Sequence record: NZ_CP118990.1
DNA length: 64,000 nucleotides
Source of the DNA: a plasmid
Strand: one strand, 5' to 3'
Shown here: one piece after another, positions 8,660-27,237 of the stretch
Layout: each line of letters starts with the position of its first letter
How positions within the stretch are numbered: the first letter of the stretch is position 1
Notes under the pieces: generated by a model
What the model was told of the DNA's origin: nothing
Seen by the model: only the letters and a program-made list of their open reading frames with translations
Databases searched by the model: none
Program-made: the position numbers and the translations under genes

Positions 8660-8887
8660 ATGAAATTGGTACGCATCACTCTCCCTGGTTACATGCTGAA
8701 AGGCGAAGCTGAATGCCTGCACTGTGATTACGTGAAGCCATACAGTATGAATCGTGAGGGAATGGCTCGTGGAACAGCGCTTGATAAGGCCCGTGCGGCT
8801 GTAGCGGCCCTCTGCTGCCCGTCATGCGGTACGAGCGATGATGGTTGTATAGCCGTACTGAGCCCCGGCCAGACCGGCGATAAGTAA
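8660..8887 (+). CDS. hypothetical Cys-containing small protein
   Basis: ORF with an RBS (GAGGGAAAGCT). Confidence 0.3.
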   Translation: MKLVRITLPGYMLKGEAECLHCDYVKPYSMNREGMARGTALDKARAAVAALCCPSCGTSDDGCIAVLSPGQTGDK

Positions 8888-9299: not shown

Positions 9300-9620
9300 A
9301 TGGAAATGACTTTTACAGCCCTGATAGCCCTTGGCGTGAGCTGGTCAGCCGGTGCCGTTCTTGAGGTGTCATCGCATGACGCGGATGTGCGGAAGATGGT
9401 TCTTGATGATATAGCCGAGGACGGCGACAAGGAATTTATTGATGCTCTCGGCGCTGGTCTGCCAAAGTCGGGCCTTATCAAGGTTCATGCCGAACTGGTC
9501 GGCTGGCCGAGCGAGTATGAGGCGGGCGAGTACAGGCTAATCAGCGCCACGACAGTATTGGCTCCTGAGCTGGCTAATGTCATGGCGGCTGATGTGATCG
9601 CCGCAGCAAGCAACTGCTAG
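9300..9620 (+). CDS. hypothetical protein
   Basis: ORF with an RBS (GGGAAAG). Confidence 0.3.
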   Translation: MEMTFTALIALGVSWSAGAVLEVSSHDADVRKMVLDDIAEDGDKEFIDALGAGLPKSGLIKVHAELVGWPSEYEAGEYRLISATTVLAPELANVMAADVIAAASNC

Positions 9621-9790
9621 GGTGTTCATGCTCCGTCATGCGGCTAGCCGGTTGCTGGATCTGGAGTCAACTGAACTGACAGAGGGGGCCGATGGCCGCC
9701 CCGATCCGGTGAAGCTCAAAGAGGCCCAGGCAGTCGCCAAACGCCTTGAAGCGATGGCCGATAGGCTGGAATCCAAGGGATAGAGGAACA

Positions 9791-10191: not shown

Positions 10192-10554
10192 ATGACTAGC
10201 ACTAGCAAAGCTAACGGACCATTCCACCAGATCATTCGGGGGAAAGGTTGGACGCTGGTTGAGGTCGGCCTGCGCTGGGGGATTAAAGAACGGCAGATGA
10301 GCCGCATCGCAAACTCGGCAAAGCAAAGAGACCTTGATGCCGCCAACGGTCTACCGTTGAATGACAAAAATGCCTCAAAGATGGTGGGCGAGCCCATGCA
10401 CCAGCACATCCGGGGTAAAGGCTGGACGTTGACCGAGGTAGGAGAACGATGGGGCGTCGCTAAACGGCAAATGAGCCGCATCGTGAAGGCGGGCAAGCCA
10501 AAAGATCTTGATGCCGCAACCGGCTTGCCTCACCAAGACAAGTCAGCCAAGTGA
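10192..10554 (+). CDS. hypothetical protein made of two tandem about 55-aa repeats (possible HTH DNA-binding)
   Basis: IRGKGWTLVEVGLRWGIKERQMSRIANSAKQRDLDAANGLP is repeated as IRGKGWTLTEVGERWGVAKRQMSRIVKAGKPKDLDAATGLP. Confidence 0.4.
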   Translation: MTSTSKANGPFHQIIRGKGWTLVEVGLRWGIKERQMSRIANSAKQRDLDAANGLPLNDKNASKMVGEPMHQHIRGKGWTLTEVGERWGVAKRQMSRIVKAGKPKDLDAATGLPHQDKSAK

Positions 10555-10741
10555 TGGTCTCTAGGAGGTGTGGTGCGGGCATAGCCCATGCAGCCCCAGC
10601 CGAACCGGCTGGGGCTGGGTTTTATTGCGTTTTGCATATGCAGTTGCATTTTGAGATGCAGTGGTACCATTGAATAAAACATTAAGGGGGATTTGACGGT
10701 GAGACCGATCAACACCCTACAACACTAACGAGGTAAGTATC

Positions 10742-11467
10742 ATGATGACATTGACCACTGTCGCCAAAAAGACATCCAACAACTCAGCCCTGGTATTCTG
10801 GCGCGTAGGTACGAAACGCAAGGGCATTCTGGACGTTCGCACGGACTTCGAGCATGAGGAATCTGACCTCCTCGCAGAGTTGATCGCGATTCGACACCTG
10901 GCATTGGATAAGCAGGTATTCTGCCGGGAGCCAGGCGCCGGAGCTGGTTACAAGCTGGTGGTTTCGAAAGGTGCGATCAAGAAACTAGCGTTGGGGAAAT
11001 CAAGTAAGGCATTCGCCGCTAAGTTTGCATCCTTCCTGACTGGCAGGATGCAGGGGGCCACTATTGAAGTGGCCCAAGGCATGGATTACATGGATGAGCC
11101 CGGTGAGAGTAACATCGAACTCCTTGATGTGGACAAGCAGGCATTCACTCAAACCTATGATGAGATCAATACACCTGCTATTGGCCCAGTGCTTGTAACT
11201 CAACATGCCCTCAGCCAATATCAAGCTAGGATCACATCTGGTGACCCCAAGAAACCTTGGGCTTCGCTTGTCGGCCGCCTCAAGCACCCGGAGCTACAGT
11301 TGCAACCATTCGATGAGAGGGTGGCCCGCCACAAAGCAATGAGGTATGGCCGCGTGGATAACGTGGAAGTCTGGGGGCACCGGGATTCTAAATTCAAATA
11401 TCTGATGGTCATCAATGACGATAATAAGAAGCGGGTATTGGTAACTGTATTTGAACGAAAGGAATAG
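10742..11467 (+). CDS. hypothetical protein (241 aa); its last 26 codons lie in direct repeat 1
   Basis: Clean ORF. The C-terminus YLMVINDDNKKRVLVTVFERKE looks like a RelE/ParE terminal strand, but the call is uncertain. Confidence 0.4.
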   Translation: MMTLTTVAKKTSNNSALVFWRVGTKRKGILDVRTDFEHEESDLLAELIAIRHLALDKQVFCREPGAGAGYKLVVSKGAIKKLALGKSSKAFAAKFASFLTGRMQGATIEVAQGMDYMDEPGESNIELLDVDKQAFTQTYDEINTPAIGPVLVTQHALSQYQARITSGDPKKPWASLVGRLKHPELQLQPFDERVARHKAMRYGRVDNVEVWGHRDSKFKYLMVINDDNKKRVLVTVFERKE

Positions 11468-11552
11468 TTGAGTAATTTGTCATATAGATCTTATTCTGCA
11501 AGGTGTAAAAAATCGGTGCCGACTAGGCAGTTATCGGACAGATCGCCTTGAA
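11389..11552. repeat. Direct repeat copy 1 (164 bp, identical to 14609-14772)
   Basis: Perfect 164-bp match read in the sequence. Confidence 0.9.
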
Positions 11553-11900
11553 TGTGGATAGTCGATGAACGATCTCCGGGTTGATAGGAGCGACGCAGGG
11601 TCTTGCCATCAACGGCAATCAATGCCCCATCCATCTGCTGCTGGATGGCCTGGGTCCAGCGAATGAATGCTGCCTGAAACTGCTCTGGCTGGATGCGGGA
11701 GATGATCCTGGCGATGGTGTCATGCACAGGAATACCATTTAGAAACAGTCCCTTATCTTGAAGCCATGCCAGATGGACCTCGCCAAAGTCTTCGATGTCC
11801 TCCCACCCCTGAGCGCCACCAATCACAGCGCAAACGGTCAGAAACAGGACATCGTAAAAGGGATAAGAGATTTTTGGATGATGTCACACTGGTGGTTTCA
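11553..11900 (-). pseudogene. ISAs1-family (H-repeat) transposase N-terminal remnant, fused to direct repeat 1
   Basis: GAQGWEDIEDFG...GIPVHDTIARI...AVDGKTLRRSY aligns with the intact ISAs1 Tnp at 62383 (GAEGWNDIETYG...GIPRRHTVARI...AFDGKVLRGSF). GTG start; stop 5 codons upstream; 3' part absent. Confidence 0.7.
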
Positions 11901-12437
11901 GAAGGGGATACGACGCAGATAGACCACATTGTCGTTGCTCCAACCGGAATATTTGTCGTCGAGACAAAGTTCTATAAAGGCCGGATTTATGGCAAGGAAT
12001 CAGACAAGCAGTGGACCCAGAAAATCTTCAAGAACACCTATAAGTTCCAGAACCCGTTTCGTCAGAACTACAAGCATGTGAAGGCTATTGAGGCACTTCT
12101 TCCCAACATTGGGTTGGCAAACATTCATTCCGTGGTTGTCATGCTCGGGGAATGTGAGTGGGCAAGCAAAGATCGACCAGCAGCTCTCTTCACTTCCGGG
12201 TGGAAAGCGGCGGACTACATTAACGACATGATTGCCAGTGGACAGAAGGTGCTCGATGTCGAAGAGGCCTCTGCGAGGCTCCAGAGTCTCAGGCTAAATG
12301 TTTCTCGAAAGGCTGGGCGCGGTGGTAGGACTATTGCAGAGGCAGTTAAAGAAGGTATTAATGTTCGTGTAATACAAGAATCTAATGGTGATATTGTTTC
12401 GGGTTTTCCAACAAACGTACCAAGGAATCCAAAATGA
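11766..12437 (+). CDS. NERD (nuclease-related domain) protein; 5' end replaced by the IS remnant
   Basis: DHIVVAPTGIFVVETKFYKG...QNPFRQNYKHVKAIEALLP NERD core. The N-terminal 40 codons overlap ISAs1-derived sequence. Confidence 0.5.
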   Translation: MPDGPRQSLRCPPTPERHQSQRKRSETGHRKRDKRFLDDVTLVVSEGDTTQIDHIVVAPTGIFVVETKFYKGRIYGKESDKQWTQKIFKNTYKFQNPFRQNYKHVKAIEALLPNIGLANIHSVVVMLGECEWASKDRPAALFTSGWKAADYINDMIASGQKVLDVEEASARLQSLRLNVSRKAGRGGRTIAEAVKEGINVRVIQESNGDIVSGFPTNVPRNPK

Positions 12438-12709
12438 AAAATGAATATAGAGAAATTGAATCCACGCTAGATCTTTTGCTTATGGTGCTGTCTGATTCGT
12501 TTTCTGAATCTGAAAGTATAGAAGTGCAAGAATTTATTGATGTGGGTGAGTATGGAATCGCACTAGAAACTATCATTGACATTATTAATGAAGAGTCAAA
12601 GAACATAACAAATGAAGCTGAGTTTCTGATTGAAAAAGCAGGGAGGATAATGAATATGGATACTGCATCCATTGTGGATAAGATTTCAAAACATATAGAT
12701 AAAGAATAA
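12434..12709 (+). CDS. small acidic protein, immunity-protein-like (91 aa)
   Basis: pI-acidic, low GC; adjacent to the Rhs tip and small membrane proteins. Confidence 0.35.
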   Translation: MKNEYREIESTLDLLLMVLSDSFSESESIEVQEFIDVGEYGIALETIIDIINEESKNITNEAEFLIEKAGRIMNMDTASIVDKISKHIDKE

Positions 12710-12710
12710 G

Positions 12711-12953
12711 ATGAAAAAAATCGGTTTAAAATATAGAGCAGTATATCTGCTTGGATTTCCGTTAGCTGGAGTCCTTATAGGGATTGCAGTGTTCGCTTTA
12801 TTCAACTATGTGAATGGGCCTCTAAGTAAATTCGCCTTATATCTGTCCGTTGGTGTTTGGGGGGGGTATGGAGTGTTCTCAGGAACCTATGGATACTTAA
12901 ATCTAAGGAAAATATTAAAGTTAAAGAGAGCTAATGAGGAATCCAAGGATTAA
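12711..12953 (+). CDS. small membrane protein (2 TM), immunity-like
   Basis: Hydrophobic helices; low-GC island. Confidence 0.3.
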   Translation: MKKIGLKYRAVYLLGFPLAGVLIGIAVFALFNYVNGPLSKFALYLSVGVWGGYGVFSGTYGYLNLRKILKLKRANEESKD

Positions 12954-13000
12954 TTACGGCTCACATGGTTCTGCTATTGGCGTAGCTTTGGGGACGGTTT

Positions 13001-13300
13001 ATGGAAATCAATAACTGGTTTGATTTTATTATATACACAATTTATTTCTTTGGGGTTGTGATAGTTATCCTTCCTACTGGGGTTATCTTTCTTTGGTTGA
13101 CATTGAAAAATCTTGTCAAAATGAGAACCCCGAGATACGAAATAAAGCACTACAAGTATTTCTCTGCAAGAAATATATTTGAAGTGTGTGTTGCAGGTGT
13201 TTTTTCTGTGGCTTTTTCTGTTTGGTATCTGTTTTTTGCCAAAGGGGGAAATCTGTTTCTTTATCCGTCAGAGGTAATGAGATTTTTTTCAGGCGGATGA
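13001..13300 (+). CDS. small membrane protein, immunity-like
   Basis: Hydrophobic helices. Confidence 0.3.
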   Translation: MEINNWFDFIIYTIYFFGVVIVILPTGVIFLWLTLKNLVKMRTPRYEIKHYKYFSARNIFEVCVAGVFSVAFSVWYLFFAKGGNLFLYPSEVMRFFSGG

Positions 13301-13348
13301 TAGTGTGGATCAGGCTCTGGCGTTGGCCCGGCCGCCGTCAGCGGCCAA

Positions 13349-13759
13349 GTGGTTTGGAAGGCGAGCTACAGCCCGTTCGGTAAGGCCAGCGTCACCACCC
13401 AGGGGCCAACCTTCAACCTGCGATTCCCAGGACAGTATTACGACGCGGAGACCGGGCTCCATTACAACTGGCATCGCTACTATGACCCAGCACTTGGCCG
13501 TTACTTACAATCAGACCGCCTTGGCCTGTTCGATGGGGTGGATACCTATGGGTATGTTCGCGCAAACCCTTTATCTGCCGGAGCGGCGGCTGGTGCGGGT
13601 ATAGCCAGCCTGCTTGGTCAAAGTGCTGGTCTATATGTTTCAGGAAAGGATGTTACTGATTACTGTAATTATGATTTTTCCGCTGTGGCTGGAGCTGCGC
13701 TGGGAGGGGCTTTAGGAGGACCTCTAGGAAGTACAATAGGGCGTTATATTAGCCCTTAG
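13349..13759 (+). CDS. Orphan Rhs C-terminal fragment: last YD repeats, RHS core-end motif, and a short glycine-zipper toxin tip
   Basis: [51 protein letters not shown] matches the RHS repeat-associated core (RYYDPxxGRYxxxDPIGLxGGxNxYxYVxNNP). Then a Gly-rich [11 protein letters not shown]...[13 protein letters not shown] tail. Confidence 0.65.
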
Positions 13760-13823
13760 CGCTTTACAATCATTGGACGTCCATTAAGTTCATCAGGGAT
13801 AAATAAAATTCCGGGAAATACTG

Positions 13824-14153
13824 TTGGCTCTGTGGTTGAAGGTGTTACCGTTGGCTCGGGTGAATTATTTGGTAAGGGGTTTTAATATGATGTGGATTGT
13901 TACGGCCATGTACTTTGTTGTTGTATCAGGTCTTTTATTAGTAGGGTTCGTTGTTTATGGGAAAACTCTATTTTTCCTGGGTAGGTCCGGTGCCTTTGCT
14001 AAATATGTGGGGGGGGGGGTATTGTTTACGTGTTGTTTGCGTGTGTATTGGTTGCACCGTTATTTATTGCTCCCGTGTTTATCAATGGGTGGCGTGAAGC
14101 TTTTAATTCTAATGTGGTTTATGCAGTTTATTTTATGGTGCTTTTTGTTTTAG
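13824..14153 (+). CDS. small polytopic membrane protein, candidate immunity protein for the Rhs tip
   Basis: Immediately downstream of the Rhs CT; 3 hydrophobic helices. Confidence 0.35.
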   Translation: MALWLKVLPLARVNYLVRGFNMMWIVTAMYFVVVSGLLLVGFVVYGKTLFFLGRSGAFAKYVGGGVLFTCCLRVYWLHRYLLLPCLSMGGVKLLILMWFMQFILWCFLF

Positions 14154-14282
14154 CAGCATTACCGGGTGGGCTGTATTTCAAAAAGAATTTCTTATCTCGT
14201 CTGAGAAGGCTTGGCTACTTTAAGAAAAGGCAGTATTGAGAACGGCTTGAAATATTGCCACCAGCGGTTAAGCCTGCTGGTG

Positions 14283-14608
14283 GCGTAGGGAAGGTGCGAA
14301 TAAGTCACCAAACATAAAAATGTGTGGGATGAAAATAAAGTTTCATCCTTGCAAATAAAGTGTCATCCCAACGGGATGAAAGCATTGATTTTGCTGGGCT
14401 GTAGCCGTTCTTACTGCTCAAATCACTGACTTTAGGATGAAACTTTAACCATCGTAGCGGGCTGGATCGCAACGTAATTTCTGGGTTTCAAGGCGGCGAA
14501 AGGATGAAACTTTATTTTCATCCAACAAAATGCGCCCTTGTAAGTATTTGAATTTAATGAACTAAATTTTTCTGTTTCGTTGTGGAGGGTGCTTATTCGC
14601 ACCCTCCA
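14283..14608. repeat. Non-coding palindromic module (MITE-like) with three GGATGAAA-N-TTTCATCC palindromes and a terminal inverted repeat GGTGCGAATAAG / CTTATTCGCACC
   Basis: Palindromes at 14329-14350, 14363-14381 and 14501-14522. The right end forms a GGAGGGTGCttattcGCACCCTCC hairpin. Confidence 0.5.
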
Positions 14609-14772
14609 TAAATTCAAATATCTGATGGTCATCAATGACGATAATAAGAAGCGGGTATTGGTAACTGTATTTGAACGAAAGGAATAGTTGAGTAATTTGT
14701 CATATAGATCTTATTCTGCAAGGTGTAAAAAATCGGTGCCGACTAGGCAGTTATCGGACAGATCGCCTTGAA
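14609..14772. repeat. Direct repeat copy 2 (164 bp)
   Basis: Identical to 11389-11552. Confidence 0.9.
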
Positions 14773-15253
14773 AAAGCAGAGTAGAGATCTCTTGCTCTGT
14801 AATTAAATTATTGCTTTTAAGAACATTTATTAAGGCTGTATCAGCAATATCGTGGAATCCCTCAATAAGGTCTTCCACCATTGCGGCAGCCTTTCGTTCT
14901 TCTTCGCTTTTCCCCATCGACCCGTCGCAGAGCCAATCTTCCACATTGCCGTATTGGGCAACGTAACTGAGTTGTTCGCACTCATGCGCAATCAGCCCAG
15001 TAACTCTCTCCATGAGTAGGTCATCGTAGGTGGGGAGTACCAGCACTGCGCCATGGCCTGGGATGTTGCGTTGGACCGTCGCCTCACTCTGAGGGCTACT
15101 TTTGAGCCATGAGAAGGCCCAAAGACCAGAACCGATCTTTTCAAGAAATATGCCTCGCTCGGAGAAGAAATCGGAGACATTTTTGAAGATGGTGCCACCT
15201 GGAGCGGCCATCGAATAGATGGATGCCATTAGCTCATCCTGACTCATGTACAT
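14711..15253 (-). CDS. hypothetical protein (180 aa), convergent partner of the gene at 10742
   Basis: Clean ORF. Its last 19 codons (QGDLSDNCLVGTDFLHLAE) are duplicated in repeat copy 1, where they are fused to the ISAs1 remnant. Confidence 0.45.
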   Translation of the reverse strand: MYMSQDELMASIYSMAAPGGTIFKNVSDFFSERGIFLEKIGSGLWAFSWLKSSPQSEATVQRNIPGHGAVLVLPTYDDLLMERVTGLIAHECEQLSYVAQYGNVEDWLCDGSMGKSEEERKAAAMVEDLIEGFHDIADTALINVLKSNNLITEQEISTLLFQGDLSDNCLVGTDFLHLAE

Positions 15254-15644: not shown

Positions 15645-16676
15645 TCAGGCGTCTTTCTTTACCTTGTGGAAGGAGCTGGTGACGTCGTTGCGCCAAGCGT
15701 CATAGGCTAGGTGCAGCACTTCTCCCTCAACCCGGAACCCTTCACCATCAAATTCGATCTTACCAATAGTCACTGGGCTCAGTGCCTTCGGCGGCCAAGT
15801 CTTCACATCCCAAGAGCCGGATACCAAACCGCAGTTATGAGCTTGGTGTCCGCCCATGCGGGGGGAACGAGCGAATTCTAACAAAGCAGCAATGAAAAAG
15901 CCCAGTTCGATCTGACTGACTGACTTGAGGGACATGCGGTGCTCCATCACTGTACCGGCGCAGATCGCCTCGTATTGGTCGATGGGGCGACGTATAGACT
16001 CCCGAGCCTCCCCCTTCTGATCTTTGCGATCTTGGATTTGTGCGTCCAATGCCGCGAGCTGGTCAAACAACACCCTTTTCTCGTCGTTCGGAGCCGTTTT
16101 CAACTGTTTTTTCAGCTCTTTTTGCTTGTCCTTCAATACTCCGACGTCGGCGGAGGCAAGGGTCTGCTCTTCCAAAATGGTTTGGAGCCGGTTTCTTTCC
16201 GACTGATCCAGTGTTTCGAGGAGCTCCGGGGAGCGTTCAAACATGATGGTGCGAGCACCACCACCAAACATGGCCGTTGCATTGGCCGTGATGGGGAAGC
16301 CGTTCCCTATGTTAGCTTTTGATGGAAGCCCCCATATGCCGAAGAGACTCAGCATCGGGTTGCCTTCGCGCAAGTGTCGATCAGAGTTCACCTCGTCGTC
16401 GGCAGGGGCAGAAATATCTCCCACAATGTCTACCCCTTGGGCCAACATGAAATGCTCTGCCAGGTCAAATGGTGGGCGTTGATTGTCTTCATTGAACATC
16501 AACACAACCCGGTGCGCAGCATGGCGCAATGAACCACGGGTAGTCGTTGCAGGCCAATAAGCTGGGGCATCGAACCCGCCATTACGTGGCAGGCGGCCCT
16601 GGGTGTTTTTTATGGTGACGGTCAAGGGCTCAACTGCGGTCAGGTGGCCGTCGAAAACAAAGGTACTTTGAGTCAT
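15645..16676 (-). CDS. csf2: Type IV-A Cas7 (Csf2)
   Basis: 343 aa. Last gene of the dinG-containing cas operon. Gly-rich FGGGARTI loop; size and position fit Csf2. Confidence 0.6.
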   Translation of the reverse strand: MTQSTFVFDGHLTAVEPLTVTIKNTQGRLPRNGGFDAPAYWPATTTRGSLRHAAHRVVLMFNEDNQRPPFDLAEHFMLAQGVDIVGDISAPADDEVNSDRHLREGNPMLSLFGIWGLPSKANIGNGFPITANATAMFGGGARTIMFERSPELLETLDQSERNRLQTILEEQTLASADVGVLKDKQKELKKQLKTAPNDEKRVLFDQLAALDAQIQDRKDQKGEARESIRRPIDQYEAICAGTVMEHRMSLKSVSQIELGFFIAALLEFARSPRMGGHQAHNCGLVSGSWDVKTWPPKALSPVTIGKIEFDGEGFRVEGEVLHLAYDAWRNDVTSSFHKVKKDA

Positions 16677-16694
16677 GGAAATTCCTTGTTGATG

Positions 16695-17393
16695 TTAAAT
16701 CAGCTGGTGAAGCATTTCAGAACGGACCCTTTGGGGGGCGACAATGGGCATTTTTTCTTTTGAGTAATACGGAGGGAGCAGTGGCGATAGGCCTGGTACC
16801 CCATCGATCCCGGATGATACCGGGAGTGGTCGATTAGCCTTATCCAACAGGATAAGGCTGGCATCTTCCTGCATGGGGGTGATGATCAGATTATCAAAGG
16901 CTCCCATCTGGCAGTTCTGAGCGTCGTAACCTAAGCCCAGAACGAAAAAATCCAGCAACCCCTTTATCAGGTAGGGATTCCCCAATCCATCGAACACTGC
17001 AAAAGGGGCTTGGTAAGCGGGCATCTCCCGCAAGCGTCGTTTGGTCGGTCCTCCCTTGAGCTTGATCTTCACATAGCGTCCTTTGCCGTTGGGGGCAAAC
17101 ATCGCCGGAGATAGTTTCTCGGGAGTATGCCGATCTGCTCTGACGTAGCTGCCGACAGTCAAGCCAACGGCCATCGTGACACCGAATCTCATTGCCGAGG
17201 CATGGAAGACACCAAGTTGGTCGTTATAGAGAAGGTAGTTGCTCATTTCCTGCAAGAGTTCTTCCCTGCTGGCAAGTGGGGAGCGCTGGCTCAGAGCCTC
17301 AAAAACCAAAGCATCAAGAGTTGGGGGGTAGTCAGTTAATACCACCGGGGTCTTTAACGACATGACCAGGCGAAAGGGTTCAAATTCGAACAT
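16695..17393 (-). CDS. csf3: Type IV-A Cas5 (Csf3)
   Basis: 232 aa. Stop/start overlap with dinG; size and position fit Csf3. Confidence 0.55.
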   Translation of the reverse strand: MFEFEPFRLVMSLKTPVVLTDYPPTLDALVFEALSQRSPLASREELLQEMSNYLLYNDQLGVFHASAMRFGVTMAVGLTVGSYVRADRHTPEKLSPAMFAPNGKGRYVKIKLKGGPTKRRLREMPAYQAPFAVFDGLGNPYLIKGLLDFFVLGLGYDAQNCQMGAFDNLIITPMQEDASLILLDKANRPLPVSSGIDGVPGLSPLLPPYYSKEKMPIVAPQRVRSEMLHQLI

Positions 17394-19342
17394 CAGAAGT
17401 AAACCTCCAATGGAGTTGCAGGTGATTGCTCGCCGTCAGTTAACAGCCCTTTGGCCTGCCGGTACTGTTGCAGAAACCGAACGGGAATGATGTTTCGCAG
17501 GATGGCGTGTTTGGACGACAAATCGTGAGACAGTGGGAAACGGGGATCGAGAATATCGACTTCAATGCAATCGTCAGGTGAACGGATCCCGCGGCCAATG
17601 GCTTGTCGCATCAACCGAATAACGGCGTTTTGAGTACGCATATACTCCTGCTTGTAGAGCTGTTTACTCAGGTCAGTCTTCTTGGTCTTCTTGTAGAAAC
17701 TTACCAACGCTTCGACTTCGGAAGTGCGTGGTTGGCCGTAGGCAATTCGAGTGATCATCAGGCGATCGAATCCAACTGAGCCAGCGTCATCGGTGATATT
17801 GAGCCCGGTATGGCCCGCAGCGGTGATCATTACTCCCCGGCCATGATGTCTGCATACCTTCTTGAACTCTTCAATCAATGATTTGAGTGGGGTGCCACGC
17901 TGGTGGACCAGCACCTGCCGATGCTCAATTTGAGCCAAAACTGCGGCCAATTTACGGCTCTCTTCATGTGAAGCTGTCAGCACAACCACCCGTCCGCATC
18001 GGTTGGTGATCTGATGTGCGACTGCTTGCAACCATTTTTCAGAAAGGGCAGGGGCATTCCCCTCAGAGGACGGTCTTGAGTAGATAGCCGGGAACGAGGG
18101 GCCCGCCAGAGTCAGGGTCATGCTCCCATATTTTTTCGGGGAGAAAAGGGCAATGGCGCCGAGCATGGTGTCATCAATACCAAGTTCCATTCGCAACGAA
18201 GTGGTACCATTCACTGGCTCAGGCGTGATACTCAGTGTGCCGGAGGTGAGGAGAACAGACTCAAAAGCTGAGGTCGCGTATTTCCCGAAGAACCGAACAA
18301 ACCACGGGGAGAGTGAGACGATGGCCGGTTCCCGGCGTATCAGTGAAACGCCGATCCCCATGGACGAGGTTTGCATCATCAGGAGCTGCTGCTGCAAAGA
18401 TGTTGAGACATCCTTATCCAGGTTATTCAACCGGCAAATCTTCTCGATCTTTCCAATGGTGGCCCGCGCCAGTTCCGCCAGCTCGGTATCCCAGGCATAT
18501 TGCTGCATCCCCAGCCGCTCTTGGATTGTCTTAATTGAATTAGCAAGAGGGGCTAATTGCCGAGCTGATAGTTGCTCGCCCAACTGGGAGGCGACACGAA
18601 CAAGATTCAGGCGCCGCTGAGTCCATTCTTGCAACCGATTCACCAGGGCATCAGCTTCATCAACAATCAGCACTGTCGGCCGTGACTTATCGGCCAAAAG
18701 CGCATTATTTCGCAGCATGTCTACTGCGATCATGGCATGAGTTGTGACCACGATGTCGCATTTAGATTCAGCCTGTTGCTGTTCGTCAAATGCCTCATTT
18801 TCACACTCAGCCGTCAGGCAAATTTGAGAGGCCAACAAGTCGCAGGGGAGTCCGCCAAACTCATCCTCAAATTCTGCAATCGTCCCTGACCAGTCACGCA
18901 AAGTAGCCACTTCGCGCTCCTCTAGGGCTGACAGAGAGCGGTTGGTGAGGGCAATATTGATCCGCTTTGGCGATACGAAATTGACCCGTCCGAGAAGACG
19001 GCCGATAGACAACGGTCTATGTCCATAATGACGGGCGACTTTGGTCAGCAGCACACTGTCTTTTTCGAGAAGTTGTTGCATCAGTGCGTGGCTGTGTGTT
19101 GCGACGATAACCCGAGGGCGACGTGGGTCGCAGAGTGCAAACTGCATGGCTGGCAAGAGATAGCCCAGCGACTTTCCGAGGCCGGTGTCAGCGTGAAGAA
19201 GCGATATTTTCCCGGTGTCAGCCAGCACTTGCTCAATCATTAGCGCATATTGGGTCTGCTCATCCCGAGCGATGAGGCCGCCAGCGGCCATCAGCTCTCC
19301 GAACTTGGCTGTGTGGATCCCGTCCTCTGGCAAGGGGCTCAT
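17393..19342 (-). CDS. dinG: CRISPR-associated DinG-family helicase (Csf4)
   Basis: Walker A HADTGLGKSLGYLLPA and DEAD box VLIVDEADALV, typical of Rad3/XPD/DinG SF2 helicases. 649 aa. Confidence 0.8.
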   Translation of the reverse strand: MSPLPEDGIHTAKFGELMAAGGLIARDEQTQYALMIEQVLADTGKISLLHADTGLGKSLGYLLPAMQFALCDPRRPRVIVATHSHALMQQLLEKDSVLLTKVARHYGHRPLSIGRLLGRVNFVSPKRINIALTNRSLSALEEREVATLRDWSGTIAEFEDEFGGLPCDLLASQICLTAECENEAFDEQQQAESKCDIVVTTHAMIAVDMLRNNALLADKSRPTVLIVDEADALVNRLQEWTQRRLNLVRVASQLGEQLSARQLAPLANSIKTIQERLGMQQYAWDTELAELARATIGKIEKICRLNNLDKDVSTSLQQQLLMMQTSSMGIGVSLIRREPAIVSLSPWFVRFFGKYATSAFESVLLTSGTLSITPEPVNGTTSLRMELGIDDTMLGAIALFSPKKYGSMTLTLAGPSFPAIYSRPSSEGNAPALSEKWLQAVAHQITNRCGRVVVLTASHEESRKLAAVLAQIEHRQVLVHQRGTPLKSLIEEFKKVCRHHGRGVMITAAGHTGLNITDDAGSVGFDRLMITRIAYGQPRTSEVEALVSFYKKTKKTDLSKQLYKQEYMRTQNAVIRLMRQAIGRGIRSPDDCIEVDILDPRFPLSHDLSSKHAILRNIIPVRFLQQYRQAKGLLTDGEQSPATPLEVYF

Positions 19343-19911
19343 AACACCTCCAGGTTCGACAACTGGCCGTAGCCAAATACCCGCTTACGGCCAATGCCAT
19401 AAACAACAGCCTGCTCGGCCAGCGCAACATCCTTGATCTCAGCAACGACACTGACCGGGTTGCACTGGAGGGTGAAGCTCTGTTTTTTCTTGAGGTAGCG
19501 CTCCAGGTAGGGGCTGTTGGCTGAGTGGCTCTGGAGCGAGAGTCCTGCCCCTTCGCACTGCCTGGCTAGAACATCAGGCAAGATGGCCATCGGCAGATTC
19601 ATCGACCGTTTTTTGGTGGTGCCTGGGATCGGATGCTTGATTGGGAAGCAGAAGTTGAGGTTGAACATGACTGCATCTGCCACGTTCAGTTCAAGTTGTA
19701 CGGCTTGTTCGCCAGCTAGGCCAAGTTGCGTTGCCGATCGCAAGTAGATAACGGTTGTGTTGGGCTCATGAGGGTGAGCAATCCGCCGCCAGCTATAGGG
19801 GACTTTACAGCGCAATGTCTCCTGTACCAAATAATCAAGACGCTGGTGGACCAGATACGGAAGAGACGGGTCAGTTTCACGCAGTTTGAGGGTGTTTTCA
19901 TAGTAAATCAT
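19339..19911 (-). CDS. cas6: Cas6 endoribonuclease (Csf5 / Cas6e-like)
   Basis: 190 aa. C-terminal Gly-rich loop GIGRKRVFGYGQL (GxGxxxxxGxG signature of Cas6). Overlaps dinG and csf1. Confidence 0.65.
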   Translation of the reverse strand: MIYYENTLKLRETDPSLPYLVHQRLDYLVQETLRCKVPYSWRRIAHPHEPNTTVIYLRSATQLGLAGEQAVQLELNVADAVMFNLNFCFPIKHPIPGTTKKRSMNLPMAILPDVLARQCEGAGLSLQSHSANSPYLERYLKKKQSFTLQCNPVSVVAEIKDVALAEQAVVYGIGRKRVFGYGQLSNLEVL

Positions 19912-20744
19912 TGGAGCTTGTCCGCGATGTGAATCAGCTTGAGGCGCTGGTGGGGGTCCGCCGGTAAAGTGCGAAATATCGTGCCGAACGATGGTTTTTT
20001 GCTGATCTGTTCACTGGCCTGCTGGGGGGTAATGCGTCCGTTCGAGAGGCCAACGACTAACTTATTGAAGGCGTTGCGTTCCTGACTTGTTAGTGTGTTG
20101 AGCCCCCCTGATAGCCGCATGGCCGCATCCAGATTAACCGTGCATTCGACTCGGGTAACTGAATCCATACCGGCGTCACTACAGCAGTAGAGCGCCTGCG
20201 GTGACAGAGATATGGTCAACCCTCGCATAAGCGCCGCGGTTTTACGTCCGAAAGATTCGATGTATAGCAGAGGGAATTTTGCATTCTCTGCGATCCATGG
20301 CAGGTGACCACCAACGGTAATCTTCACCACATCGACGTGCTCTAAAAATGATGCAGGGAACTTGTCATACACCCCTGGTGGGGCTAGGAGCGTTGAACGC
20401 TGAGGCTTACCTGGGACATCTGCAATTTCGTGCACCCAACCGACACCACTCATCATTCCAAAGCGCTGGCCCACCTTCTTGTCGCTTTTCCCGGCAGTTC
20501 GCTCATTACCCATGATGTTGGGGTCGGTCACAAACATGGCCTGGCAAGGAGCACAGTGGTTGAACGGCGTTTTATAGCTATCCAGACCTTGATAACCCAC
20601 ACGGTCAAACGAGCTTGCAGGGCGCTTGCAGCAAGAACATGCCGCACCAGTCTTTACAGCTTCTCCCAAGGCTGGAGCCAAAATATGGGTGAGGTTGGCA
20701 TAAAGAAGATCAATTGGATGTTGCACGTCACCTCCGAGAAACAT
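19908..20744 (-). CDS. csf1: Type IV-A Cas8-like large subunit (Csf1) with a zinc finger
   Basis: 278 aa. First gene of the operon. CSCCKRP...HCAPC treble-clef-like Cys cluster. Confidence 0.55.
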   Translation of the reverse strand: MFLGGDVQHPIDLLYANLTHILAPALGEAVKTGAACSCCKRPASSFDRVGYQGLDSYKTPFNHCAPCQAMFVTDPNIMGNERTAGKSDKKVGQRFGMMSGVGWVHEIADVPGKPQRSTLLAPPGVYDKFPASFLEHVDVVKITVGGHLPWIAENAKFPLLYIESFGRKTAALMRGLTISLSPQALYCCSDAGMDSVTRVECTVNLDAAMRLSGGLNTLTSQERNAFNKLVVGLSNGRITPQQASEQISKKPSFGTIFRTLPADPHQRLKLIHIADKLQ

Positions 20745-20864
20745 TCTGAAACAGTTTCACATAAGATAATAGATTTCTTTTTTTTGTAAAGAGGCAGGTC
20801 CTTGATAATCGACCGTTTTTAGTGGCCTGGTAGAAACGGGTGCTGTATAAGCTAAAACCTCGGT

Positions 20865-20891
20865 ATGCCGCCCTTTGGCGGGGGTTAGCGG
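20865..20891 (+). repeat. Degenerate CRISPR-repeat-like sequence A (TGCCGCCCTTTGGCGGGGGTTAGCGG) in the cas promoter region
   Basis: Shares the hairpin plus GGGGGTTAACGG 3' part with the array repeats at 23890-24584; same orientation. Confidence 0.5.
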
Positions 20892-20936
20892 TTTGAGCCA
20901 GCGCAAAAACAAGCCAGAGCAGAGCCATGCTGGAGT

Positions 20937-20963
20937 GCCTCCCAGTGGCGGGGGTTAACAGAT
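20937..20963 (+). repeat. Degenerate CRISPR-repeat-like sequence B (GTGCCTCCCAGTGGCGGGGGTTAACAG)
   Basis: As for A. The two are separated by a 45-nt spacer-like segment. Confidence 0.45.
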
Positions 20964-21088
20964 GAATGGCAACCTCTGGGGTTGAACGGAGGTAAAGCTC
21001 CGGGGGCCATAGCCCCTATGTTGGGAGCGCCATGTTCAGTGACATTTTACCAACGGAACAAAGTTCTGGTGTTATTTCAGGGGGAAGT

Positions 21089-21751
21089 ATGAAGGGTAAT
21101 ATAATTTCATGGAAAGATGAAAAAGGCTTCGGCTTTATAAAAAATGATGAGAATGGCGAACATATATTTTTTCATATATCGAGCGTTATAAAAGGGACGA
21201 GGCAGCCTATTGTTGGTGATGCAGTTACATTTGATGTAGGGGTTGATTCCAGCAACCGAAAAAAAGCAAAAGATATTTTTATTGAAGGGGTGTCATTTAC
21301 CAATATCCCAAGGCGAGTATTTACGGAAAAGGTTAAGCGCGACCGTTTCGATTATTATTGTTACGTCGCGATAGTGTTATCAGTGGCAATAACACTCGCT
21401 GTGTATATTAAAATGGGGCAGCCTCGACTGGCATTATTTCCCGCCGCCGTTGCTATAATGCTGTTTTTGTATATCTCCGTCCGTACTAAAAAACCTGCAA
21501 ATGACATATTCTCATGCGGGAAATGCTCATCAGTGGTTAGACATGACGCAAGAACCATTCGGGCATGGAATAAGGGTGCGTGTAAATTATATTGCAGAAC
21601 CTGCAATCAGAACTGGCATCGTGAAAAGCCACAAAGGGATAGCACTAAAAAATATAATCGCCCTCAGAAGTCTGGATGTCTAGGGGTATTATTATTTATA
21701 ACATTCGTGCCGGTATTTTTAATTTCAAGCATCATCACCTTACTGGTGTAG
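21089..21751 (+). CDS. Cold-shock-domain protein fused to a 2-TM membrane domain and a C-terminal Cys4 zinc ribbon (CSD-DUF1294-like)
   Basis: GNIISWKDEKGFGFIKNDENGEHIFFHISSV is a CspA-type S1-like domain. Two hydrophobic helices follow. CGKCSSV...CKLYCRTC Cys cluster. Confidence 0.6.
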   Translation: MKGNIISWKDEKGFGFIKNDENGEHIFFHISSVIKGTRQPIVGDAVTFDVGVDSSNRKKAKDIFIEGVSFTNIPRRVFTEKVKRDRFDYYCYVAIVLSVAITLAVYIKMGQPRLALFPAAVAIMLFLYISVRTKKPANDIFSCGKCSSVVRHDARTIRAWNKGACKLYCRTCNQNWHREKPQRDSTKKYNRPQKSGCLGVLLFITFVPVFLISSIITLLV

Positions 21752-21786
21752 AAAGAAATGTTGAAGCCTTGTTGCCTGGACTATTA

Positions 21787-21822
21787 ACTGAATGAGCCTC
21801 ATCATAATCATGGGTGAGGCTT
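21787..21822 (+). terminator. Rho-independent terminator
   Basis: GCCTCAtcataatcatggGTGAGGC followed by T6. Confidence 0.65.
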
Positions 21823-21907
21823 TTTTAATGGCCCGATAAAGGGCGAAAAGTGTCGCTCTCAAATTGCCACGCACTGACCGCGTTTCCCAAGTCGATGACA
21901 CTGAATA

Positions 21908-22098: not shown

Positions 22099-22132
22099 CA
22101 CACACAGAGGCTCAAGCGTGTCTCTGTGTGTC
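22099..22132. promoter_or_regulatory. Inverted repeat CACACACAGAG-N12-CTCTGTGTGTC
   Basis: Read directly; upstream of the phosphatase-recombinase operon. Confidence 0.45.
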
Positions 22133-22222
22133 TCTACTTATTAAAATGATTCTTTGAAAAAGTAGTGTTTATAAAATAGGATAGTTGGCAGGAAAGTCCT
22201 TCATTTTTCACGGAGAGAACGC

Positions 22223-22753
22223 ATGAGAGAGGTGCACTTCATTAGCCAGGTCGAGGCCGAAAAACTGGCGCCGGTTGCCGGTGCGGCGATGATCTCGATC
22301 ACCGACCCGGACAAACCGGAGGCGGCCCTGGGAGATTGGCAACTCTTGTATCGGGACAGCTTTTACGATGGTGGCTACAGTGAGGACACCATCCGTACCA
22401 TGAAAGGGTCTTTTCGGATGAGCTACGCATCCTACATTGACTCCCATCAGGCGAAGAACCTATCCAACTACATCGATGAGCTGGTGCAGAGCGGCATCAG
22501 CCAGATCTTTGTTCACTGCTACTACGGGGAATCCCGAAGTGGCGCGATTGCTTTGTATCTGTGCAACAAACATGGATTCACCTCGAACAAGCCCATCACC
22601 AAGCCTAACAGGACGGTCTACGATCTCCTCTGCTCCCCTTTGAAATATGAAGCACTGATACAGAGTTACGAAACACAAGATGCTGCGCCTACCGAGAGTA
22701 TCTACACCAAGATATGGGATTTATTGCTCGTGGCTATCGGTGTTAGGAGGTAA
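22223..22753 (+). CDS. Cys-based phosphatase (CX5R P-loop; dual-specificity / PTP-like), 176 aa
   Basis: VHCYYGESRSG matches the HCxxGxxRS/T active-site signature. Confidence 0.6.
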   Translation: MREVHFISQVEAEKLAPVAGAAMISITDPDKPEAALGDWQLLYRDSFYDGGYSEDTIRTMKGSFRMSYASYIDSHQAKNLSNYIDELVQSGISQIFVHCYYGESRSGAIALYLCNKHGFTSNKPITKPNRTVYDLLCSPLKYEALIQSYETQDAAPTESIYTKIWDLLLVAIGVRR

Positions 22754-22755
22754 CT

Positions 22756-23760
22756 TTGCACCAACGGAACAACCGCGACACCACTGAACTTTCACACGCG
22801 AAAGTCATTGTCTTGCCAGAACAAACCTCAGGTGGAGGCCTCCCGCAAGTCACCGGGGGGCTCAGAAGCGCACAAGATAATCCGGCAGTTGCATACCTGA
22901 TCAGCCTTGGCTCCAGGCGCAGTCGGCAAACCATGGGCTCATTTCTCAGCATTGTTGCTCGGATGATCGGGTACCAAAACCTGCGTGATTGCGCGTGGGA
23001 GTCGATGCGGCGGCATCATGTCCAAGCTGTGATCCAAATGCTCAGTGACTCTGACCGAGCGCCAGCTACGATCAATACCTACCTGGCAGCGCTGAAAGGA
23101 GTTGCCCTGGAAGCGTGGACAATGAAGCTGATTGATACCGACAGTTACCAGCATATCAAGCAGGTGCGTTCGGTGAGAGGCTCTCGTTTACCCAACGGGC
23201 GGGCCCTCGAAAAGCACGAGGTCAGAGCCCTTTATTTCACATGTGAAAACGATCGGAGCTCCAAAGGGCTGCGTGACGCAGCCATCCTTGCTGTTTTAGT
23301 CGGGTGCGGACTTCGGCGCTCAGAGGTTGTCGCCCTCGATATGGAATGTGTCATCACCAGGGATCAGGCACTTCGTGTGCTCGGTAAGGGCAATAAAGAA
23401 CGCATCGCCTATGTGCCTGACGGGGCATGGCAGCGGCTTATGCGGTGGGTGGAGGAGGTTCGTGGTGATCAGCCGGGATCGCTGTTTCAGCGGATCAGGC
23501 GGTTTGATGATGTCACCGCCGACAGAATGACTGACCAGGCTATCTATCACATTCTTGAAACGAGAAGGATTGAGGCGGGGCTGGAAAAATTCGCTCCTCA
23601 TGATCTCCGCAGAACCTTTGCATCGGCCATGCTGGATAATGGCGAGGACATCATCACGGTCAAGGATGCGATGGGCCATGCCAGTGTCACGACCACGCAG
23701 AAGTATGATCGTCGGGGAGATGAGCGATTGAAACAGGCCAGTCGGCGACTCGATTTTTGA
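22756..23760 (+). CDS. Tyrosine site-specific recombinase (phage integrase / XerCD family)
   Basis: C-terminal HDLRRTFASAMLDNGEDIITVKDAMGHASVTTTQKYDRR carries the catalytic R...HxxR...Y region. Start is 3 nt after the phosphatase stop. Confidence 0.8.
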   Translation: MHQRNNRDTTELSHAKVIVLPEQTSGGGLPQVTGGLRSAQDNPAVAYLISLGSRRSRQTMGSFLSIVARMIGYQNLRDCAWESMRRHHVQAVIQMLSDSDRAPATINTYLAALKGVALEAWTMKLIDTDSYQHIKQVRSVRGSRLPNGRALEKHEVRALYFTCENDRSSKGLRDAAILAVLVGCGLRRSEVVALDMECVITRDQALRVLGKGNKERIAYVPDGAWQRLMRWVEEVRGDQPGSLFQRIRRFDDVTADRMTDQAIYHILETRRIEAGLEKFAPHDLRRTFASAMLDNGEDIITVKDAMGHASVTTTQKYDRRGDERLKQASRRLDF

Positions 23761-23862
23761 GTCGGAAGACCAATGTTAATCAGTTGCGCACTCAGAATTT
23801 AAGAGGTAAATTTCAGCCACCAATCCTCAAGTGTGCGAACATCGCTGAACGTGACCTAATCT

Positions 23863-23886
23863 TGATGGTAATTGTTGACTTGGTAA
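23863..23886 (+). promoter_or_regulatory. Candidate sigma70 promoter in the CRISPR leader (TTGATG-17-AAGTAT)
   Basis: Hexamers read directly. The leader 23761-23889 is AT-richer than its surroundings. Confidence 0.35.
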
Positions 23887-23889
23887 GTA

Positions 23890-24584
23890 TCGCCCCCCCG
23901 CAGGTGGGGGTTAACGGGCGTGTAAAGCGTCCAACGTGACTTACAGAAAATCGCCCCCCCGCAGGTGGGGGTTAACGGAGTGGATGCATTTGCTGACTTC
24001 CACCGATGAATCGTCCCCCGTGCCTGGGGGTTAACGGTACTCGGCCTGGCACAACATGGACCTCACCCGATTTCTCCCCCGCAGCTGGGGGTTAACGCCG
24101 CGAGGGGAGCTGTTGCTATAGCGGGAATGAATCCCCCACCGCAGGCGGGGGTTAACGGCGTCAGCACATCACACAGCTATTGAGCACCAGATCGATCCCC
24201 CGCAGGCGGGGGTTAACGGTTTTCGATGATGTCGGTGGCGTTTGCCATCATATCGCCCCCCGCAGGCGGGGGTTAACGGACGCTGATAACGCATATCGAC
24301 GACGGATTTGAATCACCCCCCCGCAGGCGGGGGTTAACGGCCCGCGGGATAGAGAAGTGGTGCCATCAGCGCATCTCTCCCCCGAGCCTGGGGGTTAACG
24401 GTGCCCTTTTTGTGCACAAACAAAAAAATCAAAATCCATCCCCCTGTTACGGGGGTTAACGAAGCGGGACGTCGTGGTGCTGTGCTGCGGCTGCATCTCC
24501 CCCCAGCAGGCGGGGGTTAACGTTAGCTTCACACCAGGCCTTGATAGCATCGCCGATCTATCCCTCGCGACTGGGGGTTATCGG
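23890..24584 (+). CRISPR. CRISPR array: 12 repeats of about 28 nt (consensus about TCGCCCCCCGCAGGCGGGGGTTAACGG) and 11 spacers of 32-37 nt. The degenerate terminal repeat is at the 3' end.
   Basis: Period about 61 bp. Spacers are unique. The conserved GGGGGTTAACGG 3' handle and C5-7/G5 stem resemble type I-E/IV-A repeat architecture. The last repeat is TCCCTCGCGACTGGGGGTTATCGG. Confidence 0.85.
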
Positions 24585-24772
24585 GAGGAAGCATGGCACA
24601 ACAGAACGTTTTCCTTCTTCGATTGAGGGTTATGCGCGAAATGGCCGCCGACACCGACTCGGTGATCTCTGCCGTCACGGCCGAGCTGCCAGTCGGTTTC
24701 CCTGAGCACATTAGCAAGGCCATTTTTTCTGGGTTGTCGGCTCAAGCAGCCAAGCTTCTGAGAGGGTGAGAA

Positions 24773-25270
24773 ATGGCTGAAATGAGCAATTTTGGGGAAA
24801 GCTTCAAGCTTTATTCCGACGGGCAACGAGATCCTGTCAAGCGCACAGGCCTGAACGTCCAGTACACAGAGACTCGGGCCAACTACCCGACAATCAGCAT
24901 CGAGATCGCTCCCATCCGGGCGGCAGGAGCAAAAGCAGACTGGGAGCAGAAGATCACAGTACAACTGACCAGGGCAGAGCTGACCGCGTTCTGCGGTGTG
25001 ATGTTTGGGCTCAGGAAGGATGCCACAGGGTCATACCATGGTGACGCCAACAACAAGAGCTTCGCGACATACTGCAACGGCAAGTCCGGCGTCGCCATCC
25101 TTCTCATGGCACGAGGGAACCAGTACCAGCACCTCATTACACCCGATGACCGAATGGAGCTAGCTGTATTCGCGATAAGGAGGTTGGCTGAGGCATGGAA
25201 GGTCACCCCTTCTGATGCGATTGCGATGCTCCGTCAAGGGGCGTGGATGAGCAAGAATCAGGTAAATTAG
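24773..25270 (+). CDS. hypothetical protein (165 aa)
   Basis: ORF with a GAGGGTGAGAA RBS; a terminator follows at 25289-25313. Confidence 0.4.
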   Translation: MAEMSNFGESFKLYSDGQRDPVKRTGLNVQYTETRANYPTISIEIAPIRAAGAKADWEQKITVQLTRAELTAFCGVMFGLRKDATGSYHGDANNKSFATYCNGKSGVAILLMARGNQYQHLITPDDRMELAVFAIRRLAEAWKVTPSDAIAMLRQGAWMSKNQVN

Positions 25271-25288
25271 AATGGGTTAGATAATGAA

Positions 25289-25313
25289 AATCCCGCTTGA
25301 GCGGGCTTTTCGA
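25289..25313 (+). terminator. Rho-independent terminator
   Basis: CCCGCTtgaGCGGG followed by CTTTTCG. Confidence 0.5.
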
Positions 25314-27220: not shown

Positions 27221-27237
27221 ACGTGGCCGGTTTCTTC

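Follow-up and report, generated by a model that had tools for sequence, protein, structure and literature searches.

Perfect 164-bp direct repeats around a decayed Rhs-island remnant in an Aeromonas-type plasmid, and their possible origin from two joints of different age

Plasmid pAsa4 of Aeromonas salmonicida is a distant relative of the IncA/C plasmids (PMC5088629, PMC13635750). In IncC plasmids a whole Rhs island is flanked by orthologs of two backbone genes, here called the 241-amino-acid (aa) gene and the 180-aa gene, which in pAsa4 are directly convergent. IS5 targets YTAR sites and makes 4-bp duplications (PMC5009759), and IS5-family elements can transpose replicatively via cointegrates; insertion sequence (IS) copies without target duplications usually come from adjacent deletion or from recombination between IS copies, an IS at the junction of a duplication being another known origin (PMC11708052). 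The DNA analyzed here, called the window, is a stretch of 64,000 nucleotides from the plasmid of sequence record NZ_CP118990.1. In it the same two genes are separated by a 3-kb remnant of such an island, bracketed by two copies of a perfect 164-bp direct repeat (R), and the right junction of the insert lies at the end of a miniature inverted-repeat transposable element (MITE) of IS5 type. The repeat is read here, with a confidence that stands about halfway, as the overlap of two joints of different age, made on different copies of the backbone, and not as a target-site duplication (TSD). The repeat and its borders were placed as follows.

10742–11467, plus strand: 241-aa backbone gene, conserved in the pAsa4/IncC family and intact thanks to copy 1 of R.
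11389–11552: copy 1 of R, containing both gene tails and a 23-bp spacer; it starts at the CTAA site (11388–11391).
14289–14607: IS5-group MITE, 109 bp without the element nested in it, with termini GGAAGGTGCGAATAAG / CTTATTCGCACCCTCC.
14608: one base, A, separating the MITE terminus from copy 2; C is found at the corresponding position (11388) of the empty site.
14609–14772: copy 2 of R, which gives the 180-aa gene its intact 3' end.
14711–15253, minus strand: 180-aa backbone gene, conserved and convergent with the 241-aa gene.

The copies of R have a spacing of 3220 bp, with mismatched bases on either side of both, and enclose an insert of 3056 bp (11553–14608). The original prediction, made from the sequence alone, had described perfect 164-bp direct repeats around an insert of about 3.06 kb between convergent genes, and had given the gene tails in R correctly. 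A perfect repeat of 164 bp is impossible by chance. R consists of three parts: 25 sense codons and the stop at the 3' end of the 241-aa gene (KFKYLMVINDDNKKRVLVTVFERKE, then the stop), the spacer of 23 bp, and the final 19 codons, with their stop, of the 180-aa gene (QGDLSDNCLVGTDFLHLAE, then the stop). In copy 1 the 180-aa tail is in frame with a fragment of an ISAs1-family transposase, a fusion also noticed earlier, and this gives an open reading frame (ORF) of 111 aa with a DDE_Tnp_1_assoc domain. The window held no further copy of R or of the insert, and no other homologous segment able to template a larger duplication. No RNA family was above threshold in the region, and no convincing terminator or promoter was found in R.

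R is far too long for a TSD, as had been argued before: the yardstick is 4 bp for the IS5 group and less than about 15 bp for known IS families, and 4 bp was found at the other copies of this MITE. In addition the insert ends in an element terminus only on the right, its left end being an internal fragment of ISAs1. At the right junction (J2, 14608/14609) the MITE terminus at 14607 is followed by the single A, which is identical in the window and in two related assemblies (L004 and L005), and then by R. R begins at the TAA of a CTAA site, the empty sequence reading C and then TAA at 11388–11391. This position of J2, at an IS5-type MITE terminus and a YTAR site, had been missed by the original prediction. 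YTAR sites make up 0.7% of window positions.

Only two matches to GGAAGGTGCGAATAAG were found in the window, against 0.05 expected by chance: one at 14289 and one, on the minus strand and with 1 mismatch, at 14607. With its terminal inverted repeats, small size and absence of a transposase gene the element has the characters of an IS5-group MITE, and IS5-type MITE copies of 109–110 bp were present in other plasmids. The 4-bp flanks of six other copies were CTAG (four copies), CTAA (one) and CTAA/TTAA (one), five of the six being perfect duplications, and the CTAG and CTAA flanks match the YTAR rule of IS5 (PMC5009759). The first-base mismatch of the CTAA/TTAA pair, which is comparable to the A at 14608, belongs to the copy in Salmonella plasmid pN17-509 (L015). 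The island copy has no target duplication; its left flank is GTAG, in Rhs-island DNA, and its right flank is ATAA, formed by the A and the start of R, and this mismatch indicates that the element has been rearranged since its insertion. Since the sequence at its left flank is uninterrupted in the V. rumoiensis island, the MITE probably entered the island first and had its right flank exchanged later. Assembly L004 (GCA_032739995.1) carries a new 109-bp copy at 8767–8875, flanked by a perfect CTAG duplication; the window has the same site without interruption (~9617–9622), and the MITE is therefore mobile at present in this plasmid lineage.

The right end of the MITE is a hairpin with a perfect 9-bp stem (GGAGGGTGC-TTATTC-GCACCCTCC). 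Nested in the element is a second MITE of 205 bp (14323–14527) with TG...CA termini (TGTGGGATGAAAATAAAGTTTCATCC) and a 5-bp AAATG duplication; a copy 100% identical to it is present in A. hydrophila pMCR5_045096, with the duplication GTTCT. Two other features of the borders were examined and dropped. A Chi-like sequence (GCTGGTGG) 7 bp from the MITE was set aside, as it belongs to a stem-loop that the uninterrupted V. rumoiensis sequence has too. The outermost bases of the insert are TG on the left and CA on the right, and over its first 5 nt it agrees with the terminus of the nested MITE; this was judged to be chance because the left end is inside conserved transposase coding sequence.

At the left junction (J1, 11552/11553) the tail of the 180-aa gene runs into the interior of the transposase gene, the microhomology being 1 nt. 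Two features follow it.

11553–11874, minus strand: ISAs1-family transposase fragment, internal, about codons 19–128, cut at both ends.
11766–12437, plus strand: chimeric 223-aa ORF, consisting of antisense ISAs1, then a NERD fragment, then the 3' end of an EndoU-type rhs.

The ISAs1 fragment shares 78% identity with ISKpn31, and metagenome contig L044 has a complete element that matches it at 322/323 positions. The NERD fragment (11875–12295) corresponds, by tblastn and blastn against L002, L003 and L036, to about aa 66–206 of a NERD protein of 227 aa, is without about 65 N-terminal and about 20 C-terminal codons, and scored 94.7 bits with Pfam NERD. From 12296 the last 46 codons of an EndoU-tipped rhs follow. 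Judged by these alignments the 223-aa ORF is a three-part chimera and not an intact NERD gene. In the Rhs/NERD island first proposed, the NERD gene is therefore only such a chimeric remnant. The scars inside the insert show 3 nt (ISAs1 to NERD) and 0 nt (NERD to rhs 3' end, 12295/12296) of microhomology, and by its structure J1 can be classed with them as an illegitimate joint. J1 was absent from PLSDB.

The anatomy of the two junctions bears on a possible role of an integrase. Some phages carry a replacement 3' end of their target gene, which gives an integrase-made duplication of att type. Read in that way R would mark a genomic islet; it does restore the 3' ends of the flanking genes, and a conserved tyrosine recombinase is located ~9 kb off on the backbone. 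Such an origin is very improbable. No integrase, and no recombinase or replication gene, was found among the ORFs of the insert, and no recombinase with an att site could be assigned to it. The insert ends in an internal transposase fragment on the left and a MITE terminus on the right, and the repeats are identical to resident sequence, not a diverged copy borne by an element. No duplication of the gene tails was seen at the borders of the full island that IncC plasmids carry in this slot.

Three structural states were found among other assemblies. The empty state, with one R, is represented by three independent contigs from three SRA samples (L006, L007 and L011), whose 100% identity to the window stops precisely at 11552 and resumes precisely at 14609; a sister plasmid of this form, in which a single R joins 11388 to 14773, had been anticipated by the original prediction. 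Two more assemblies of isolates (L004 and L005) have the state of the window, with both copies of R and with both junctions identical; GCA_027707385.1 and GCA_032739995.1 are among the assemblies of window-type isolates. Relative to the window, L004 has seven differing sites inside the insert, an additional IS, and an additional MITE elsewhere on the plasmid. The deletion joint at 12295/12296, specific to the window-type state, was present also in L059 and L061.

These assemblies leave little room for an artefact, which had been raised earlier as an assembly collapse. A 164-bp repeat exceeds common k-mer sizes and is a classic ambiguity of assembly graphs, and the comparison made here rests on assemblies, not reads, so that the second R or the placement of the insert might stem from a mis-join at a short repeat, the true plasmid having one R. 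This is regarded as most improbable, since three assemblies of different samples have identical junctions and differ elsewhere in the insert, where one has the additional IS. The exact flanking proteins are also separated by four genes on a 208,934-bp record. Beside an empty plasmid a free circle of R and insert would not persist, as the insert has no replicon, and both junctions are biologically meaningful in their anatomy.

The third state has J1 only. The 111-aa ORF spanning J1 was found on 15 contigs, of which 14 are metagenome or Logan contigs. Nine J1-only contigs (L046–L054), which stem from graph assemblies at k=31 and k=127 and from metagenome assemblies of NCBI, were examined; all run from the 241-aa gene through R and the ISAs1 fragment to NERD, unbroken at R. 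The J1-only samples include ERR13656165/229/243/271, ERR14653835 and SRR2097333. Judging by the behavior of the assemblers, R apparently has a single context in these samples. Contigs L048 and L053 continue past 12295 into an undeleted NERD 3' end and the 5' region of rhs, so that J1 and the joint of ISAs1 to NERD predate a 4.3-kb deletion, and the island attached to J1 was once larger. Delivery of the island by a single event, as first suggested, is contradicted by this older left junction, which is attached elsewhere to a larger, undeleted island; the suggested involvement of recombination was borne out.

The J1 contigs had 0 single-nucleotide polymorphisms (SNPs) relative to the window over 11166–11918 and ~3% divergence from 11919 on. 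At ~3%, 10.7 differences would be expected in the ISAs1 fragment, and none was seen (P=2e-5); the mosaic boundary at 11918/11919 thus reveals recombination between island alleles. The island was found on several haplotypes of the 241-aa gene. The rhs 3'-mafI allele of the window was present with undeleted rhs in L060, L062 and L063, and one sample (SRR13003751) yielded both empty-site contig L011 and undeleted-island contig L063. No informative SNPs overlap between empty and filled contigs.

The J1-only contigs also bear on an origin in one step by template switching. A nascent strand would have left its template at 11552, copied scrambled island DNA of a co-resident molecule, detached after the hairpin at the right end of the MITE and re-annealed 164 bp back, so that R was copied twice. 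The 1-nt microhomology at J1, the patchwork of the insert with its 0–3 nt joints and the 9-bp-stem hairpin all suit this course, the A at 14608 could be an untemplated base or one from the donor flank, and an insertion that lies between the copies of a duplication and has no target duplication is known from experiments (PMC11708052). A one-step origin is nevertheless improbable. J1 was found without the rest of the window-type structure, on an undeleted island and apparently with a single R, in many samples, which argues that J1 and J2 were not made together; and the position of J2, at both the terminus of a mobile element and a YTAR site, would be coincidence.

In the history preferred here, for and against which we see the case as about equal, an island-bearing plasmid and an empty-site plasmid would have fused at the MITE end and then been resolved by homologous recombination. 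The first step would be an island-bearing plasmid of this backbone that carried J1, the 180-aa tail being fused inside ISAs1 beside the island. In the second the CTAA site, 164 bp upstream of the position of J1, in another copy of the backbone with an empty site would have been linked to the right end of the island MITE. The link could have arisen through replicative transposition with a cointegrate as product, through recombination with a MITE that the CTAA site already carried, or through a MITE-adjacent deletion within a plasmid multimer. In the third step recombination in the shared backbone would have given a monomer in which left backbone, R, island, MITE, R and right backbone follow one another. 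Copy 1 of R would then come from the island-bearing parent and copy 2 from the empty parent, and 164 bp would be the distance between J1 and the CTAA site. As both copies of R were kept, both flanking genes are intact, which is probably why the product survived. Because the repeats are perfect, homologous recombination of RecA type can lose the insert precisely and restore the empty site, and some empty-site plasmids could be revertants.

A Campbell-type insertion overlaps largely with this fusion and resolution and differs only in the intermediate. A circle of 3,220 bp (R and insert) from an island plasmid would have entered an empty-site plasmid by one crossover in R. It gives perfect flanking repeats automatically and makes the insertion reversible; the repeats are in fact perfect and match exactly the segment of which the empty target has one copy, and empty and filled plasmids with otherwise identical flanks coexist in nature. 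A MITE terminus at J2 is what the circle junction would show after intramolecular attack on CTAA, and the presence of the island on several 241-gene haplotypes fits recombinational spread. We nevertheless think a Campbell-type insertion unlikely, since it accounts for the spread of the structure and not for its origin, the first circle still requiring both J1 and J2 on this backbone. With no replication or recombinase gene in the insert the circle would be transient, and no circular form or circle-junction contig was seen; the junction predicted for the circle (14608 to 11389) has the sequence of J2. Such a circle could come from intramolecular transposition of the MITE, or from recombination between the two copies of R in another window-type plasmid.

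Several results weigh against fusion and resolution as the origin of the repeat. The order of the events, which we infer from the states described, is beyond proof from end products. The single copy of R in the J1-only samples rests on the behavior of graph assemblers, not on reads, and the J1-only contigs are mostly metagenomic. The right end of the J1-only molecule was not found, nor was the reciprocal product of recombination, with a predicted joint of GGGATTCTAA to GGAAGGTGCGAATAAG (241-aa gene, CTAA, left end of the MITE); in the donor configuration the right end of the MITE would be followed by GTAGATGTGCTC, the native island flank. A search of JGI metagenomes for J2, with the odd base left free so that a simple MITE insertion in the 241-aa tail would also be detected, gave no match, and no match to the left junction of island and MITE was obtained in species-representative genomes. 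No full-length IS with the IS5-type MITE termini is present in the window, so that a transposase would need to act in trans. Finally, no model accounts for the A at 14608, where CTAA would require a C, and J2 departs from the textbook form of an IS5 joint.

Two candidates for missing intermediates were rejected. Contigs L039 and L041 (ENA ERZ2800311 and ERZ2800305), considered as the right end of the J1-only plasmid, proved to be a Rep3 plasmid with the same island allele beside an inverted backbone-like segment. Their rhs 3'-mafI allele is 100% identical to window 12296–12765, and the inverted segment corresponds to window 22132–28469 (176-aa gene, integrase, CRISPR array and Ter gene), which is another context for island and segment. 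Truncated variants of the 241-aa gene that might mark a MITE-only intermediate were limited to N-terminal partials and one unrelated interruption (P0089/L033). The latter, in A. caviae assembly GCA_033902065.1 (L033, 8200–8234), is an independent interruption ~20 nt past the CTAA site, at the equivalent of window ~11410, and the tail of the 241-aa gene has thus been hit repeatedly; the contig stops 17 nt into the foreign DNA (TGAGCCTGTAAATGATT), which is probably an IS end.

A further idea, that R and insert (3.2 kb) together form an integrase-free, reversible cassette which shuttles orphan Rhs-immunity genes via R into the pAsa4/IncC-like slot, is doubtful. If it were true, the duplication would let the cassette integrate without harm to either flanking gene, and plasmids would trade immunity genes by homology, the trade being seeded by MITE activity.

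By its content the insert is a decayed mosaic of the NERD-rhs-mafI island that occupies this slot in IncC plasmids. It had been described as low in G+C content, which holds overall (0.442, against 0.51–0.54 in the flanks); the low values are uneven, with 0.38 in the rhs 3'-mafI part and 0.53 in the ISAs1 fragment. The remaining features of the insert are these.

12434–12709, plus strand: MafI-family immunity gene, 91 aa, intact (NCBIfam NF033691, 64.5 bits, cutoff 31).
12711–13300, plus strand: two small island ORFs of 80 aa and 99 aa, conserved and in the same order in L035 and L036.
13349–13759, plus strand: orphan Rhs tip, 136 aa, from the RHS core end through the DPxGL region to a short glycine-zipper C-terminus.
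13824–14239, plus strand: small hydrophobic ORF region downstream of the orphan tip, frameshifted at a G-run (14009–14010).

The stretch 12296–13356 is collinear with L035, L036 and L038 at 98.7% identity, apart from one deletion of 4,319 bp which took the 3' end of NERD and nearly all of rhs. An identical MafI protein directly follows a full-length EndoU-tipped Rhs (1417 or 1420 aa) in L035, L036, L038, L040, L042 and L043. The only clearly intact, recognizable gene of the insert is mafI, an orphan accompanied by small neighboring ORFs, of which the 80-aa and 99-aa ORFs had no family matches. The orphan MafI and these neighbors would plausibly protect against the EndoU Rhs toxin that full islands encode. 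The 136-aa tip matched TIGR03696 with 77.9 bits against a cutoff of 32.5 (residues 7–76), and no other Rhs sequence and no full-length rhs was found in the window. The tip and the frameshifted ORF have 97–99% nucleotide identity to pieces of the V. rumoiensis island. The hydrophobic ORF, a 93-aa ORF in sister L005, is possibly an immunity gene; its G-run varies in length, with one G fewer in L005 and two fewer in L004 than in the window, and this difference is either a real, phase-like variation or a homopolymer sequencing error. The additional IS of L004, ~1.7 kb in size (11608–13334, window 12344–12349), is within the rhs 3' part of the chimeric ORF and encodes a 538-aa transposase with DUF4277 and DDE_Tnp_1; it is absent from the window and L005.

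Gene order and identities indicate that the window is an Aeromonas-type plasmid with a pAsa4/IncC-like backbone. The order common to pAsa4 and IncC plasmids comprises a toprim primase, small ORFs, the 241-aa gene and, farther on, the tyrosine recombinase. The backbone has ~75–80% nucleotide identity to IncC, and no plasmid with this backbone at high identity was found in PLSDB, where the best match of the flanks was of pAsa4 type (~82%). A resistance region farther along the window is 99.8% identical to plasmids of A. caviae and A. media. The 208,934-bp record has the exact 241-aa protein too, the rest of the cluster of this protein being Aeromonas; the family of the gene comprises 76 clusters. 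Orthologs of the 241-aa protein have 91% aa identity in pAsa4 and 87% in IncC plasmids. Those of the 180-aa protein have 78% aa identity in pAsa4 and 45% in IncC, where the gene is on the minus strand on the far side of the Rhs island. In pAsa4 the segment equivalent to R is single-copy, with ~80% identity. As the orthologs flank the Rhs island of IncC plasmids, the insert of the window occupies the same backbone slot. The 241-aa gene had no match in Pfam, NCBIfam, PADLOC or PHROG, and PADLOC and PHROG gave no function for the flanking genes or the small island ORFs. In Vibrio and Shewanella genomes (L026–L029) with more distant relatives of the 241-aa gene, at 57% aa identity, Rhs core-end fragments lie 5–8 kb upstream of the gene, not downstream, and no 180-aa ortholog was found within 8 kb of it.

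Upstream of the 241-aa gene a 120-aa ORF (10192–10554), conserved at this position in pAsa4 (76% aa), contains an internal direct repeat of 125 nt (10225–10349 and 10399–10523, 73% identity) which encodes the motif IRGKGWTL.EVG.RWG..RQMSRI twice. A weak Rfam match at 10515–10626, to the rnk leader of Pseudomonas (RF01772; 31.5 bits, E=0.017, gathering score 55), is probably due to chance.

Adjoining the 180-aa gene is a divergent type IV CRISPR-Cas module (15645–21900, minus strand) with Csf2/Cas7 (15645–16676), Csf3/Cas5 (16695–17393) and a DinG/Csf4 helicase (17393–19342), followed by 190-aa and 272-aa genes that were also seen in sister contigs; all NCBIfam matches were far below the curated cutoffs. 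A CRISPR array at 23889–24584, beyond the tyrosine recombinase, has ~12 repeats of 29 nt with 60–61-bp spacing. pAsa4 is without the type IV module, and L035 and L036 have a different type IV-A set (Csf1, Cas6_csf5 and an 826-aa helicase) on the other side of the Rhs island. The differing sets suggest that this region of the backbone collects defense cargo.

The locus can serve as a worked example that a long apparent target duplication need not mean an artefact or a new mechanism of integration, and that it can be the overlap of two unrelated joints, brought together by recombination of sister plasmids. The slot between the convergent genes is an island site common to IncC and pAsa4-like plasmids, the 109-bp IS5-type MITE is currently active on these Aeromonas resistance plasmids, and plasmid Rhs islands decay to immunity-only remnants. 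Current understanding is not overturned by these observations, and ordinary rearrangement of mobile DNA, not a new system, is the most likely explanation.

Among the closest described structures is the rhs region of IncC (IncA/C) plasmids, of the V. rumoiensis plasmid and of the L036-type contig, which is in the same slot between the 241-aa and 180-aa orthologs and shares the genes NERD, EndoU-tipped rhs, mafI and the 80-aa and 99-aa ORFs (96–99% nucleotide identity). Here only a 3-kb remnant is left, with the body of rhs and both ends of NERD deleted and with an ISAs1 fragment and two MITEs added; the backbone is pAsa4-like, and the 164-bp duplication is absent from IncC plasmids. In orphan Rhs toxin/immunity modules (Poole et al. 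2011, PMC3150448; Koskiniemi et al. 2014, PMC3967940) displaced core ends or tips and immunity genes, without a full-length rhs, are shuffled by recombination, as is the case here. The insert has the parts of such a module, namely a core end and tip without the N-terminal shell and a MafI-family immunity gene. It differs in its location on a plasmid and in the absence from the window of a full-length rhs with which to recombine, and as far as this gene content indicates the module could therefore serve only as immunity or as a reservoir.

Like IS copies that lack target duplications (PMC11708052), the MITE has mismatched flanks, and its terminus abuts a canonical target motif (YTAR of IS5, PMC5009759). 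In contrast to these copies it is a non-autonomous element of 109 bp, the duplicated segment measures only 164 bp, one base is anomalous, and the other border is an illegitimate joint without an IS. Campbell-type insertions and integrative elements that duplicate the 3' end of their target have repeats equal to the single-copy target, leave the genes intact and are reversible. Here, unlike in those elements, neither an integrase nor an att core is evident, the repeats do not differ from resident sequence, and the anatomy of the junctions indicates a MITE end and illegitimate joining. Each ingredient of the locus is known, and their combination, like the documented series of empty, J1-only and window-type states, is a new instance, not a new kind.

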